Virus record (IMG/VR): IMGVR_UViG_3300043683_000015
Location: 1-41,546 of that record
DNA length: 41,546 nt
Reading direction: 5' to 3' (one strand)
Origin: a virus
Taxonomy: Duplodnaviria; Caudoviricetes
In this document: piece after piece, positions 28,361-41,083 of the stretch
How positions within the stretch are numbered: position 1 is the first letter of the stretch
Layout: each line of letters begins with the position of its first letter
Translations under genes and position numbers: made by a program
The notes under the pieces: generated by a model
Told to the model about the DNA's origin: nothing
The model's database searches: none
What the model saw: only the letters and a program-made list of their open reading frames with translations

Positions 28361-28584
28361 TCAAGGCGACCTATGCTGGCCTATCCGGCGCGGAGTTCAT
28401 GCGCGAGGTCAGCGACGACCCCGAAAAGTGGGCCGAGGCGCTTTATGATGCCTGGGGAAAACAGCGTTTCACCACCCACGCGGTATGGTCGGCAAACCGC
28501 GAAGAGCGCATCGAAGAACTCGCAAAATGGTTCCGCGACGCCATGGACGCCGCACGCCGCCTCAACCCGAAGGTAGTGCCATGA
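28357..28584 (+). CDS. Hypothetical protein
   Basis: GGAGG RBS, ATGA overlaps between terL and portal. Confidence 0.6.
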   Translation: MIKATYAGLSGAEFMREVSDDPEKWAEALYDAWGKQRFTTHAVWSANREERIEELAKWFRDAMDAARRLNPKVVP

Positions 28585-30701
28585 CCGCACCCCGCGCGCT
28601 CTACGCCGATCCGCCAACTGATCCCGCCGCCGCCGAGGCAACCGCACCCAAGGGCGGCCCCGCTAGCGAGGGCTACACCCGCGACCTCGATGACGCCCAC
28701 GCCCGCCTCGTCCGCTGGTTCGAGGAGTCGGAAAACACCGGCATGGACGCACGCGACCGCTCCAACCGCGACCGTGACTACGTCACCGGCATTCAATGGA
28801 CCCAGGCGGAACTGAAGGCCCTGGCCGATCGCCACCAGCCGCCGATAACCATCAATTACTGCTCCCGCAAGGTCGATCTCATGTGCGGCATCGAGCGCAA
28901 GAGCCGCACCGACCCGAAGGCATACGCCCGCAACCCGGCGGACGAGGACAAGGCTTACGCGGCAACCCAGGTGCTGCGCTACATCGCCGACCAGAACAAG
29001 CTCAACGTCACGCGGTCAGCCGTCTACGAGAACATGCTGGTCGAAGGCGCCGGCGGCTGCGAACTCGGCCTCGAAGACGACGGCAAGGGCGGCGCGGAGA
29101 TCACCATCACCGCCGTGCCATGGGACCGGCTGTGGTGGGATGTCCACTCCCGCCTGCCGGACTTCAGCGACGCGCGCTACAAGGGCCTCGTGATCTGGCT
29201 CGACCGCGACCAGGCCAACGAAATGTGGCCGGATGCGGAAGACGTCATCACCGACAGCTTCGCCACTCACGACGGCAGCTACGACGACCGCCCCGGCCAT
29301 GTCCTGTGGACCGACAGCACCCGATCCCGCGTCCGCGTCGTCCAATGCCACTGGGACGAAAAGGGCACATGGTGGAGCGCCACCTACACGCGGTCAGGCT
29401 TCCTCGCCTCGCCCCGCCAATCGCCGTTCTTCGACCACAAGGGCAAGTCAGCCTGCGCTCTGGTCATGCAATCCGCCCATGTGGACAGGGAAAACAATCG
29501 CTACGGCATGGTCCGTGATATGATCTCGTTGCAGGACGAGATCAACAAACGCCGGTCCAAAGCCCTGCATCTGTTGTCAGTCGCGCAGATCATCACCGAG
29601 AAGGGCGCGGTGCAGGACATTGACCACGCGCGCCGCGAGGTCGCCAAGCCGGACGGCGCCGTTGAGGTCATGCCGGGAATGCGCTTCGAGGTCCACCACG
29701 GCGGCGAGATGGCTACCGGGCAGATGCATTTGCTCCAGCATGCGACAGGCGAGATGCAGGCTACCGGGCCGAACGCCTCGATGAGCGGCACCGACGATCG
29801 CGAGCTGTCCGGCCGCGCCATCCTGGCCCAGCAGGCGGGCGGGGCGGCGGCTAACGAACCCATCGCGGACGGGCTGCGGCAATGGATGCAGACCGTCTAC
29901 GAAATCTGCTGGATGGCCGCCCGGCAATACTGGAGCGCGGGCAAATGGGTGCGCGTGACCGACGATCTGGGGAATACGAAATACGTCGGCATCAACCAGC
30001 CCATCACCTTGCAGGACAAGCTGGCCGAAATGCCGGACCAGCAGCGGGCGCAGGCCATGCAGCAACTCCAGATCGTGCCCGGCGATCCGCGCCTCGGCAT
30101 GGTCGTCGGCGTCGAGAACGACATCCGCGAGATGGACATCGACGTCACCATCGGCGCCGGGATGGACGTGCCAAGCCTCCAGAACGAGCAGTTCCAGGTG
30201 CTGTTGCAACTGGCGTCCACGCAGCCGGGGCTGATCCCCGCCGACGTGCTCATCGCCGCCTCCAGCCTGCACGACAAGGACAAGCTGCTGGAGCGCATGA
30301 AGCAGCACGAACAACAGCAGGCGCAGGCGCAACAGCAGGCCGGGCAAATGGCCCAGCAGCACGCCCAGGCCGATATCACCGGCAAGCAGGCCAAGGCCGC
30401 GGCCGACTTCGCGCTGGCGGCCGAGCGGCGGCATGCCTCGGTGCATCATATCGCGGACATGCATCAAGGCTTCATGGACATGAACGCGCCGCCGGATGCC
30501 CCGAGCGCGCAGGGCACCGTGGTTCCGCCCGAGGTCCAGGCGGCGCTGGACACGGCCGACCTGCGGGGCCGCCACGCCAAGGCCGCGGTGGACGAGGCGC
30601 GGGCGAATGATCTGCGGCACTCGGCGGTGGAGCGCGTGTCCAATGTGATGCTGCAAGGGCTACAGGCGCAGCAGCCGCAGGGGCCACAGGGAGGAACCTG
30701 A
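28581..30701 (+). CDS. Portal protein, P22-like
   Basis: DYVTGIQWT, PPITIN, RYGMVRDM...QDEINKRRSK, SGRAI; Gln-rich barrel-like C-terminus. Confidence 0.92.
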   Translation: MTAPRALYADPPTDPAAAEATAPKGGPASEGYTRDLDDAHARLVRWFEESENTGMDARDRSNRDRDYVTGIQWTQAELKALADRHQPPITINYCSRKVDLMCGIERKSRTDPKAYARNPADEDKAYAATQVLRYIADQNKLNVTRSAVYENMLVEGAGGCELGLEDDGKGGAEITITAVPWDRLWWDVHSRLPDFSDARYKGLVIWLDRDQANEMWPDAEDVITDSFATHDGSYDDRPGHVLWTDSTRSRVRVVQCHWDEKGTWWSATYTRSGFLASPRQSPFFDHKGKSACALVMQSAHVDRENNRYGMVRDMISLQDEINKRRSKALHLLSVAQIITEKGAVQDIDHARREVAKPDGAVEVMPGMRFEVHHGGEMATGQMHLLQHATGEMQATGPNASMSGTDDRELSGRAILAQQAGGAAANEPIADGLRQWMQTVYEICWMAARQYWSAGKWVRVTDDLGNTKYVGINQPITLQDKLAEMPDQQRAQAMQQLQIVPGDPRLGMVVGVENDIREMDIDVTIGAGMDVPSLQNEQFQVLLQLASTQPGLIPADVLIAASSLHDKDKLLERMKQHEQQQAQAQQQAGQMAQQHAQADITGKQAKAAADFALAAERRHASVHHIADMHQGFMDMNAPPDAPSAQGTVVPPEVQAALDTADLRGRHAKAAVDEARANDLRHSAVERVSNVMLQGLQAQQPQGPQGGT

Positions 30702-31605: not shown

Positions 31606-32430
31606 ATGAGCGAACTCGACAGCTTCCTTTCATCCGGAACGCAACCGCCGGACCCGTCATCCCCCGCGCCAGCCTCGCCCCCGCAGCCGACACCACCGCC
31701 GCCGCCGGCCGCCAAGGCTGAGCCAGCCAAACCGGAGGCCAAGGCCGAACCACCCAAGGCTGCGCCCGAGCCGGAACCCGAGCCGGACGAGGACGTCGGC
31801 CACGAAGGTATGATCCCGGCCTCCACCTTCCACAAGGCGCGCACCGACTGGAAGTCCAAGGTCGTCGAAGCCCAGACCCAGGCCAAAATGCTCCGCGAGC
31901 AGATCGAAGCGTTCCAGAAGCAGCAGGCCGCACCGCCGCCACCGTCGCCCCAAGCTCCCCAGCCGCCCGTGGTGCTCGATCCCGCCCGCGATCCGGTCGG
32001 CTACCACAACCGGCTGCAAGAGGTGCTGCTCAACGACCGGCTCAACATCTCCGAGCTGATGGAAAAGGAGAAACACCCGCCCGAGGTCTTCGATGCCGCC
32101 GTGAACGAGTTCAAGGAAATGGCCCAGAAAGACCCGGCGCTGTTCCAGAAGCTGCACCAGCAGATGCACCCCTATGGCTGGCTGATGAAGGAAGTGCAGC
32201 GGCTCCGCCTCCAGCGCGAGGTCGGCGACGACCCCGAGGGCTACAAGGCCAGGCTTCGCGCCGAGTGGGAGGCCGAGCAGCAGCGCACCGCCGAGACGCC
32301 GATATCGCCCGCCGCCGGGCTGCCGCCGTCGCTGGCCACCACGCGGTCGGCTGCGCCACGTTCCACCAATGGATTTTCCGGGCCGCCCGGACTCGATGAC
32401 ATCCTTCGCCGGGAGCCGAAGCGGCGGTGA
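31606..32430 (+). CDS. Capsid scaffolding protein
   Basis: AGGAG RBS; Pro/Glu-rich N-terminus, coiled coil, PPSLA motif; directly upstream of MCP. Confidence 0.75.
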   Translation: MSELDSFLSSGTQPPDPSSPAPASPPQPTPPPPPAAKAEPAKPEAKAEPPKAAPEPEPEPDEDVGHEGMIPASTFHKARTDWKSKVVEAQTQAKMLREQIEAFQKQQAAPPPPSPQAPQPPVVLDPARDPVGYHNRLQEVLLNDRLNISELMEKEKHPPEVFDAAVNEFKEMAQKDPALFQKLHQQMHPYGWLMKEVQRLRLQREVGDDPEGYKARLRAEWEAEQQRTAETPISPAAGLPPSLATTRSAAPRSTNGFSGPPGLDDILRREPKRR

Positions 32431-32648
32431 ACCAGGATACCCTGACCATCGCCACGGCCATCCTCTACGCCATCCGTCTCGGTCAGAAATGGCCGGAAAC
32501 ACCCGCTCACCGCGAAAGATTATTGTTTTCGGCCCTGACGGACGCTAATGATATCATCCGTCTCGTCCAGAGGCAGACCGTCCCGCCGCCGGGGACAATA
32601 CCATCGGGCGTTAAACCGTCTGCCAATGGAAACCGCCGCCGGGTTTAA
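32427..32648 (+). CDS. Small hypothetical ORF overlapping the structured capsid leader
   Basis: GTGA overlap, GGAG RBS; 3' end includes hairpins 1-2. Confidence 0.4.
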   Translation: MNQDTLTIATAILYAIRLGQKWPETPAHRERLLFSALTDANDIIRLVQRQTVPPPGTIPSGVKPSANGNRRRV

Positions 32649-32800
32649 CAGGGCGTACGTCGGGCACTAAAGGGGCCGCCGCCGGGTCCATCCGCCGCCG
32701 GGAAATCGGGCGTCCTTTCGGGCTGTAGCGCCCCGCCGCCGGGGGCACTCGCACGCTGGCGCTTGGCGTCGGCACGTTCCCGAGACCCTCGCCCGAGGAC
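32580..32800 (+). ncRNA. Putative structured cis-regulatory RNA: five hairpins with invariant GCCGCCG loop
   Basis: Stems GTCCC/GGGAC, AAACC/GGTTT, GGGCC/GGTCC, TCC/GGA, GCCCC/GGGGC differ in sequence but keep pairing. Confidence 0.65.
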
Positions 32801-32807
32801 CACTCAA

Positions 32808-33920
32808 TTGGCAGACATGAATCTCACTCCCGCGAGAGCGGGACTGACTCCGATCATCTGGGACTCCGACTACTTCACCGAATACATCCGCAAAAACCAG
32901 TTCGCCCGCTACATGGGCACGACCATGGGGTCGATGATCCAGGTCAGGGAAGACCTGACCCGCAAGGCCGGCGATACCGTGGTGTTCCCCACCGTCCGCA
33001 GGCTCGTCGGCGCAGGCGTCACCGGCAACGCCGTGCTTGAGGGCAACGAAGAAATTCTCAACGCCCGCAGCTTGAACCTGCAAGTAGCGGCCATCCGCCA
33101 CGCCGTCGCGGTTTCCGACTGGGACGAACAGAAATCGGTCATCGCACTCCGTGATGCCGCCCGCGATGCACTGATGAACTGGTCGCTGGAAAAGATCCGC
33201 GCCGATATCATCATCTCGCTCGAAGCCATGACGGCGGACGGATCGGTCCAGATCCCCTACAGCACCGCTTCCGCCGCACAGCGCAATACCTGGCTCACCA
33301 ACAACGCCGACCGCGTGCTGTTTGGCGTGTCCAAGTCCAACGCCGTGTCCAACGTCATGGCCACCGCGCTCGCCACGCTGGACGCGCCCACCGACAAGAT
33401 GAGCGCCGCCATCGTCACCCTGGCCAAGCGTATCGCCCGCACCGCCAGCCCGCGCATCCGGCCGATCAGCGTGAACGACGATGAGGAATGGTTCACGATG
33501 TTCATGCCATCGCTGCCGTTCCGCGATCTGATGCAGGATCCGGTGATCATCAATTCGTTGCAATACGCCTGGGATCGCGGCCGAGACAATCCGCTCTTTA
33601 CCGCCGGTGACCTGATCTATAACGGCGTCATCATCCGCGAAGTCCCGGAGATGCCGGTGATTGCAAACGCGGGCGCGGGCGGCACCACGGACGTCGCCAT
33701 GTCCGCCCTCTGCGGCGCGCAGGCGCTCGGCGTGGCATGGGCACAGCGCACCAAGAGCACCACCAACACGCGTGACTACGGCTACATGCACGGGGTCGGC
33801 ATCCAGGAGATGCGCGGCATCGGCAAGCTGCGCTTCGGCACCGACCCGACCGTGGACACTACCAAGCCGGTCGATGCCGGGATCGTCTCGGTATTCACCA
33901 CCGCTGTCGCGGATGCCTGA
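32808..33920 (+). CDS. Major capsid protein (N4-gp56/DUF4043-like), TTG start
   Basis: GAGGA RBS; DLTRKAGDTV.F, G.GVTG...LEGNEE, NPLFTAG...YNGVIIRE, LCGAQAL..AW, DYG. Confidence 0.9.
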   Translation: MADMNLTPARAGLTPIIWDSDYFTEYIRKNQFARYMGTTMGSMIQVREDLTRKAGDTVVFPTVRRLVGAGVTGNAVLEGNEEILNARSLNLQVAAIRHAVAVSDWDEQKSVIALRDAARDALMNWSLEKIRADIIISLEAMTADGSVQIPYSTASAAQRNTWLTNNADRVLFGVSKSNAVSNVMATALATLDAPTDKMSAAIVTLAKRIARTASPRIRPISVNDDEEWFTMFMPSLPFRDLMQDPVIINSLQYAWDRGRDNPLFTAGDLIYNGVIIREVPEMPVIANAGAGGTTDVAMSALCGAQALGVAWAQRTKSTTNTRDYGYMHGVGIQEMRGIGKLRFGTDPTVDTTKPVDAGIVSVFTTAVADA

Positions 33921-39978: not shown

Positions 39979-40304
39979 GCGCGCATCCGGAAACGTTGAT
40001 ATCCATTAAGCGCGTGGCGGCTGCCCGGCCATTCATCGCGGCTGCGATGAAAGGGGGAGGCTACCTAAATGATGGTATCCGCGCCGCTCTCGCCGCTGCG
40101 GATGCTGCTGCGTGGCGGCTAATCGAAACGGCCCCGAAGGACGGCACGGAAGTTCTGGTGTTCGGGCGTCCGATCAGCGGCGAGCGCGGCTCGATCTGGG
40201 TTGAGCATTACGAGGTTGTGCAGGCGGGCGGCGAAGCGGGATGGCCCATGTCCGTCACTCATTGGATGCCCCTGCCCGCGCCGCCGGGAAAGAAGGCGGC
40301 ATGA
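39975..40304 (+). CDS. DUF551-like protein
   Basis: WRLIETAPKDGTEVL and THWMPLPAPP. Confidence 0.75.
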   Translation: MSAHPETLISIKRVAAARPFIAAAMKGGGYLNDGIRAALAAADAAAWRLIETAPKDGTEVLVFGRPISGERGSIWVEHYEVVQAGGEAGWPMSVTHWMPLPAPPGKKAA

Positions 40305-40324
40305 CCATGAAAGGAACCCACGCC

Positions 40325-41083
40325 ATGCGACCGTCTGTTGTCGTCGGCATGATCGCCAGCGCAGCGATCAGCGCCGCTATCGCGCTCTCGCCGCACCCGG
40401 TTCGCGCCGCGTTGCAGATCGCGGGCACCGTCAACGGCTCGTCGTTCCTGTGCGTCGACAACACTGCCTGCGACAGCGACGGGGCGGTCGGCACGCTGCG
40501 CCTGTCCAATCAGACCCTCGCGGGCGTGGTGGTGGACGGCAGCATCCAGTCGTCCTTCGGCACCCCAGGCAACCCCGGCCCGCTCGATATCCTGAACACG
40601 TCGTCACTGAGCGTCATCAACACGAATGCCGCGACCGTTCAGGCGCTCATCACCGTCTCGGACACCAGCTTCGCCGCGCCCGTGACGCAGGCAACGCTCT
40701 CGGCGAGCGGCACATGGGAAAATGCTGTCGGCTCATCGATTGCCATGAGTTGGTATGCCGACACCGCGAACGGCCAGGGCGCCGACTTCGCGGGCGACAA
40801 CCCCGGCGTGTTGCTCGATACCGCCGTCAGCACCGCGTTCCTGATCGCGGATAGCCTCAGCCATAGCGCCTCCGTGCCGTTCAGCGCCACCGCGCCGTTC
40901 TCGATGTCCGAAACGGCCCTGATAACGCTCACCGCTGGCGGCACGCTGCTCAATCGCGGCCAAACCGCGTTGGCCGCCGTCGAAACACCCGAACCGTCAT
41001 CCCTGTTCATCCTGGGCGGCGGCATAATCGCCCTCGTCCTGGCGCGCACCCGCGCGCTCGGCAAATCACCACTAGGAGCCTGA
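40325..41083 (+). CDS. PEP-CTERM sorting-domain surface protein
   Basis: Signal peptide ending VRA; Ser/Thr/Ala-rich body; TPEPSSLFILGGGIIALVLARTR C-terminus; alternative start 40301. Confidence 0.85.
   Translation: MRPSVVVGMIASAAISAAIALSPHPVRAALQIAGTVNGSSFLCVDNTACDSDGAVGTLRLSNQTLAGVVVDGSIQSSFGTPGNPGPLDILNTSSLSVINTNAATVQALITVSDTSFAAPVTQATLSASGTWENAVGSSIAMSWYADTANGQGADFAGDNPGVLLDTAVSTAFLIADSLSHSASVPFSATAPFSMSETALITLTAGGTLLNRGQTALAAVETPEPSSLFILGGGIIALVLARTRALGKSPLGA

Follow-up and report, generated by a model that had tools for sequence, protein, structure and literature searches.

Tandem predicted pseudoknots, an undescribed covarying RNA motif, before the scaffold or capsid gene of short-tailed phages

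What is the role of a short element that is repeated five times in the leader of a major capsid gene? The question is raised by the virus record IMGVR_UViG_3300043683_000015 (Caudoviricetes), whose whole stretch of 41,546 nt is called here the window, and which shows exact copies of CCGCCGCCGGG on the plus strand at 32583, 32633, 32676, 32692 and 32733, between the scaffold and capsid genes. The record is complete, with direct terminal repeats, and also encodes an integrase and a large terminase besides the head genes listed in Table 1. The scaffolding protein matches the proteins annotated as scaffolds in Pam5 (E 3e-12) and in Pam1 (E 4e-10), and its predicted structure shows a long helix and a helical bundle; a fold search with this protein gave nothing at E<=0.001, no RNA-binding feature was identified in it, and the leader of its own gene contains no pseudoknot unit of the type described below. 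The capsid protein is related to the Pam1 capsid (PDB 7eel, E 5.7e-51), Acetobacteraceae MAGs hold capsid proteins 72-75% identical to it, and MAGs with related capsid genes span more than one phylum. An earlier reading of this DNA from its letters alone (the sequence-only reading) had given the capsid gene a TTG start codon; this start, at 32808, is borne out by the relatives, which start at the same M-A-D-M codons: among 166 starts read, 95 are ATG, 44 are TTG and 20 are GTG. At 40241-41083, the window contains a 280-aa ORF with a C-terminal PEP-CTERM sorting motif (21.4 bits against a Pfam cut-off of 20.7), which is unusual in a phage gene.

Table 1. Head genes and leader features of the window, and antisense genes at related loci (positions are those of the window, except where loci are named).
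Feature	Position or loci	Strand	Remarks
P22-like portal gene (PF16510)	28485..30701	+	profile matches; context
Scaffolding protein gene, 274 aa	31606..32430	+	homologous to the annotated Pam5 and Pam1 scaffolds
73-aa ORF	32427..32648	+	conserved in a sub-clade; last codons cross units 1 and 2
Unit 1, predicted pseudoknot	32580..32610	+	stem GTCCC/GGGAC 32580-32596; loop 32585-32591; tail CGGGCG 32605-32610
Unit 2, predicted pseudoknot	32630..32655	+	stem AAACC/GGTTT; loop 32635-32641; tail AGGGCG 32650-32655 (G7.A mismatch)
Tail 3 and hairpin 3	32661..32689	+	CGGGCA 32661-32666, then hairpin 32673-32689, loop 32678-32684
Unit 4, predicted pseudoknot	32691..32712	+	stem TCC/GGA; loop 32694-32700; tail CGGGCG 32707-32712
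Tail 5 and hairpin 5	32719..32746	+	CGGGCT 32719-32724, then hairpin 32730-32746, loop 32735-32741
CGCCCGAGGAC	32790..32800	+	complementary to tails; overlaps capsid SD GAGGA 32795-32799
Major capsid protein gene	32808..33920	+	TTG start; PHROG 334, Pfam PF13252
HNH gene between array and capsid start	L009, L020, L030, L032, L059, L064, L065, L067, L074, L348, L353	antisense	
HNH gene between scaffold and array	L033, L034, L052, L055, L058	antisense	

The five hairpins that had been described around CCGCCGCCGGG, with their differing stems, are all present at their sites, and so are the five interleaved G-rich elements (the tails of Table 1) with their complementarity to the loops. The small ORF that had been seen to end inside hairpin 2 stops at its 3' end. 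Outside the array, the window contains three further exact copies of CCGCCGCCGGG. In 300 dinucleotide shuffles of the window, the chance level is at most one copy per 200 nt, and one copy is also the maximum over 5000 shuffles made from the 231-nt region; together with the stem pairing statistics given below, these shuffles rule out a chance repeat in G+C-rich DNA.

Comparison with related loci shows that each hairpin is one half of a predicted H-type RNA pseudoknot in which both helices covary. The unit is 21-30 nt long and contains a variable stem of 3-5 bp, a 7-nt loop (G-Y-C-G-C-C-G), a short linker and a tail (C-G-G-G-C-G); loop positions 3-7 are predicted to pair with the tail, with one G left unpaired between them. 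Among 300 leader units collected with no stem required, stem pairs 1-3 are formed in 295, 293 and 288 (shuffle means 213, 207 and 132) and position 4 is paired in 172 versus 125 in shuffles, in agreement with the covariation first proposed for these hairpins; in 252 occurrences of the same motif outside leaders, pairs 1-3 are formed in 110, 113 and 97. A set of 66 units of equal length shows pairing in 96.5% of cells versus at most 59% in slid controls, and changes on both sides at eight of the nine pairs (four of four in the stem, four of five between loop and tail); this set was hand-picked from 142 candidates with the stem in view, and every loop-tail change in it comes from a single sequence. 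In a loosely defined set of 399 units, which contains false positives, an A at loop position 5 is accompanied by a T at the partner site in nine of ten cases. Other loop-tail pairs are seen as well: position 3 can have U-A, position 4 A-U, and position 7 any of U-A, A-U and C-G. The pair between loop position 6 and the tail is invariant. Exceptions are an A.G mismatch between loop position 3 and tail position 6 in several relatives, and G.A at loop position 7 in 10 of the 300 units, unit 2 of the window being one of them; unit 2 is also the top match of model R1 (33 bits). The position-5 variant arises at separate places of the capsid tree.

A pattern search of IMG/VR separates compensated from uncompensated changes. 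The doubly changed tandem pattern gave ten matches, all directly before a gene in scaffold position and about 11-20 nt away from it: nine of these genes are assigned by scaffold profile and one by its position between portal and capsid. The two singly changed patterns, of which the second is slightly looser, gave 1 and 42 matches; none of the 43 lies before a head gene and none has both stems. The first three stem positions show 48 G.U pairs and no A.C pair when read on the plus strand, so the fold belongs to the mRNA-sense strand, and the same count disfavours an element of the minus strand or of duplex DNA. The array is very probably a functional cis-acting RNA.

In the window, the units do not all follow the standard order. 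Hairpin 5 has no tail downstream, and tails 3 and 5 possibly form tail-first (permuted) units with hairpins 3 and 5, as the order of the elements suggests. The window and its six closest relatives show up to seven hairpins (H), which with the tails (t) are mostly ordered H-t, H-t-t-H, H-t-t-H. The 261-nt leader as a whole folds no better than its shuffles in a program that does not handle pseudoknots (z = +1.5, 191 of 200 shuffles as good), so one large stable leader fold is unsupported and the signal resides in the small modules.

According to this comparison, the unit is a conserved module, present in repeated form immediately ahead of the scaffold or the capsid gene in a large group of short-tailed phages. 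Among 64 non-redundant loci that contain both genes and were fetched by capsid homology alone, 54 have one or more units ahead of the scaffold gene but lack them ahead of the capsid gene; the remaining ten include cut-off leaders, variant units and one array that automated detection missed. The cultured phages Pam1, Pam5 and Pan3 have two units each before the scaffold gene, and CBW1004C-Prop1 has one standard and one variant unit. No array was found in the six more distant capsid relatives checked: KLEP18-1, RHph_Y1_10, PBC5, BcepMigl, KPP25 and AP1. In the array-less Burkholderia phage BcepMigl, a gene encoding a CsrA-like regulator (L210, 3663-3857) directly precedes the capsid gene and is possibly another route of head-gene control. 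The copy number ranges from one to seven: two units are found in 63 of 80 scaffold leaders and three in 33 of 57 capsid leaders. What had been taken for a feature of the capsid leader is therefore a conserved pseudoknot array on head-gene mRNA, as far as its nature is concerned, and its usual form is two copies before the scaffold gene. A signal for readthrough or frameshifting behind the stop codon of the portal or scaffold gene was rejected, the distance from array to stop ranging from a few to more than 500 nt.

In a capsid tree made by a quick method and rooted at midpoint (99 proteins reduced from 212), all loci with the array before the capsid gene, alone or together with one before the scaffold gene, form one clade with support 99, nested among loci with the scaffold-type array. 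Four loci with arrays before both genes fall outside the 22-member capsid-only clade that contains the window. The simplest reading of this tree is that the array was duplicated to the capsid leader and later lost before the scaffold gene. In the clade of the window, the array stands before the capsid gene and appears expanded from its copy number, the five copies being a local expansion. In the loci with both arrays L112/L344, L232 and L376, the upstream array lies 200-400 nt before the scaffold start, and in L112 and L232 it is followed by the SD and ATG of a small ORF.

The distance between the array and the start codon is constrained in scaffold leaders. From the last tail to the start there are 10-18 nt in 43 of 80 leaders, 25-37 nt in 26, and 40 nt or more in seven; none has 19-24 nt, and the remaining four are wrong start calls. 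A short spacer hairpin folds in 23 of the 26 leaders of the longer group (17 at p<=0.05), which makes the structural distance between array and SD roughly constant, and the array lies within the initiation region in 69 of the 80. The RBS is predicted to be largely open in scaffold leaders, with a mean opening energy of 4.7 kcal/mol, and more closed in capsid leaders (12.8 kcal/mol, or 9.8 with the units locked). In the window, 95 nt separate the end of the last complete unit from the capsid start.

The sequence-only reading also proposed a switch in which the array sequesters the capsid SD. The duplex can form (32706-32726 with 32786-32803, -17.8 kcal/mol; the first tail with the same SD stretch, -16.5 kcal/mol), and pairing between the array and the 12 nt that precede the capsid SD exceeds that of shuffles (p<=0.05) in 24 of 63 capsid leaders, where it goes via loop, linker or tail according to lineage, in at least three registers. 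These 24 are related to each other, and the significance is that of shuffles, the cross-locus control being weak because relatives share sequence. As a general property the switch is not upheld: the other 39 leaders lack significant pairing, and p is 0.38 in L001, which is near-identical to the window, 0.52 in L006 and 0.005 in L004. The duplex of the window is thus possible, with selection for it not established. Taken together, the comparison establishes that both helices exist as covarying pairings, on which strand they lie, that they stand ahead of scaffold or capsid genes, and how they are spaced from the SD.

The conservation of letters about an unpaired G, the repetition in tandem, the fixed SD spacing and the near-confinement to head genes point to an operator that is read by a protein. 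That the array is a multivalent, protein-bound translational operator which sets the output of shell proteins has, in our judgement, about an even chance of being correct; we infer the identity of the binder and the sign of control. The free scaffolding protein is the likeliest binder, by analogy, and is put forward as a tentative candidate only. In the ancestral layout, two units would reach to within 1-9 nt of the scaffold SD, or to within one short hairpin of it, and a protein bound to them would obstruct 30S loading, by which surplus scaffold would stop its own production. For some members of the window's clade, the SD-proximal sequence could pair with a unit instead, and a ligand that locked the pseudoknots would release the capsid SD and couple coat synthesis to scaffold supply. 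An operator of reversible sign, in which the same module with free scaffold as binder represses at the scaffold SD and activates before the capsid gene against anti-SD pairing, is unlikely. If it were true, the capsid tree would record a regulatory rewiring from scaffold only to both and then to capsid only, and a copy of the array in a tRNA-Thr islet (L542) would be a decoy or a sensor of the phage scaffold protein.

The 73-aa ORF at 32427, which had been considered as a ligand, matches no PHROG or Pfam family. Its homologs are found in 51 of 136 capsid-type loci and in none of 100 scaffold-type loci, so it cannot be the general ligand. Its C-terminal codons span units 1 and 2, with the stop usually at unit 2, so ribosomes on this ORF would transiently unfold the units.

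The occurrences away from standard head genes bear on the idea of a single phage binder. Loose patterns match mostly by chance. A metagenome pattern search gave 120 matches: 33 show both stems and 87 fail the two-stem filter, among which three are real arrays read out of register. Of the 33, 20 lie before scaffold or capsid genes by profile, four are at short loci, behind a portal or scaffold gene, five precede scaffold-like N-termini recognised by eye, one is ambiguous, and three are L606, L559 and L542. In L606 the module precedes a capsid gene of another family (match to 8e16, E 0.0017), in L559 it precedes a distant scaffold-like gene, and in a further locus, L675, a gene in scaffold position that gives no scaffold-profile match. 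L542 is the only one of the 33 clearly without a head gene. It shows, at 1270-1640 on the minus strand, a TTGACA hexamer, three complete units, a 24-aa hydrophobic ORF and a terminator, in an islet of about 1.2 kb that is flanked by a tRNA-Thr gene on one side and by a direct repeat of this gene's first part on the other; this stand-alone copy is possibly a prophage remnant, a decoy RNA or a sensor. The modules of L606, L675 and L542 strain the idea that one phage protein is the binder. In 800 sampled bacterial genomes, the two-unit pattern is at about control level, proper stems (judged by eye) are found only in the seed prophages, and no module was found before host metabolic or transport genes.

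The strongest competitor of the protein-bound operator, distinctly less probable and still a real possibility, is a stabiliser of mRNA that needs no ligand. A cut just upstream in the late transcript would leave the stacked pseudoknots as a barrier to 5'-end-dependent decay or to RNase E scanning, so that scaffold and capsid mRNA would outlive terminase and portal mRNA; a riboswitch pseudoknot that acts as a roadblock to RNase E scanning is a reported precedent (PMC9373788). The arrays mark the border between low-copy and high-copy head genes, and they also precede unrelated head genes. Eleven distinct loci contain intact arrays of 3-4 units at 611-626 nt upstream of the capsid start, with an antisense gene between them (Table 1), so SD adjacency is dispensable there and an insert of about 600 nt is tolerated. 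From their motifs we take these inserted antisense genes to be HNH-type endonuclease genes. At the insert-bearing loci, mean identities are 77% for arrays, 82% for inserts and 83% for capsid DNA, and the SD pairing is significant in one of ten loci with an intervening HNH gene. In KLEP18-1 and RHph_Y1_10, HNH genes are annotated at this place too, yet there is no array. A terminator-like hairpin with a U-run stands right before unit 1 in 10 of 79 scaffold leaders, where it leaves no space for a promoter, and in none of 55 capsid leaders; the far-off intact arrays and these hairpins are both compatible with a stabilising role. However, stabilisation leaves unexplained the two-peaked, hairpin-corrected SD spacing, the complementarity that part of the capsid clade shows on the SD side, and the near-invariant letters of loop and tail, even at loci with 43-47% G+C.

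The fixed SD spacing and the open RBS (4.7 kcal/mol) of scaffold-type leaders would also suit an enhancer read by the host ribosome, in which the pseudoknots dock on the 30S platform or on protein S1 beside the SD and raise initiation constitutively. Protein S1 binds pseudoknots, and the use of the module before unrelated genes and the occurrence of related capsid genes in MAGs of more than one phylum agree with a host-derived reader. Such an enhancer would be expected before host genes too, yet the 800 bacterial genomes show the control level, and arrays about 600 nt from the start do not fit; we regard it as improbable. An assembly-associated RNA, the other role suggested by the sequence-only reading, would be freed from the mRNA, and its loops and tails would pair between molecules and help to nucleate proheads, in the way that the loops of phi29 pRNA pair between molecules. 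The five loops and five tails of the window, two of the tails ahead of their hairpins, and the stand-alone three-unit copy of L542 could be read in this sense, but the copy number varies from one to seven, the arrays are embedded in an mRNA leader, tied to the SD and lack a separate 3' boundary, and in the prevailing geometry, which is intramolecular, the tail lies 5-10 nt past the loop. Nothing in the analysis supports such a role, which is very improbable. Just as improbable is a tandem small-molecule riboswitch: a compact H-type pseudoknot whose unpaired G residues are invariant, the tandem arrangement, the closeness to the SD and, in some leaders, an alternative pairing would be in keeping with it, but no Rfam riboswitch model matches up to E 10, and the module is found almost exclusively before phage head genes, with none before host genes in the 800 searched. 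Least probable of all is an element that acts as DNA, such as a hairpin promoter, an activator site or a packaging signal. In its favour, a terminator-like hairpin that adjoins unit 1 in 10 of 79 leaders would demand a new promoter; against it, the wobbles are confined to the mRNA-sense strand (48 versus 0), the loop-tail spacing varies, and no sigma-70-like site was found in the region.

The protein-bound operator has relatives among known systems, while the motif itself appears to be undescribed. The sequence-only reading had recognised no named family, and the array matches none in Rfam 15: there are no matches at the gathering threshold in the window and in six related loci, and at E<=10 there are none or only chance matches (E 7.7 and 4.9). 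In this undescribed, covarying motif, the predicted fold is akin to the pseudoknot operators of phage leaders. Compact H-type pseudoknots beside the SD are also found in the preQ1-I, SAM-II and guanidine-III riboswitches, from which the array differs by its context, phage head assembly instead of metabolism, and by giving no Rfam match. To our knowledge, no RNA operator structure is defined for the scaffold autoregulation of P22, which was reportedly described in 1985, and no description of such an operator was found in the accessible text of the literature. GP20 is a scaffold-like protein. Structured RNAs lie directly upstream of phage GP20 genes, as the array does before its head genes: GP20-a (RF02991, 107 nt), GP20-b (RF03003, 72 nt) and six further candidates are given in PMC10690425, whereas the repeats here have 21-30 nt and do not match those Rfam models. 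In the same source, the leader pseudoknot of T4 gene 32, directly upstream of a phage gene like the array, is bound by the gene product and controls translation (PMC10690425); it is a single pseudoknot before the gene of an ssDNA-binding protein, unlike the one to seven short copies before head genes, whose binder is putative. The P22 scaffolding protein (gene 8) has been linked to control of its own translation, and its model resembles the long helix and helical bundle predicted for the window scaffold, according to bioRxiv 10.1101/2022.12.13.520362. The window shares with P22 a head module with a PF16510 portal, and differs from it in that the array precedes the capsid gene and not the scaffold gene. 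A full-text search found no description of the motif, within the text that it covered; an unnamed candidate in the alignments of PMC10690425 or in the supplement of PMC5737381 is possible.

The balance between scaffold and coat in tailed phages is a long-standing question, and the motif is defined here in a widespread phage group with cultured members, for one of which, Pam1, the capsid is solved (PDB 7eel). With a module of 25 nt and natural compensated variants, the binder, the sign of control and the stoichiometry become testable with simple assays, and the shift of the array from the scaffold leader to the capsid leader offers a natural experiment in regulatory rewiring.
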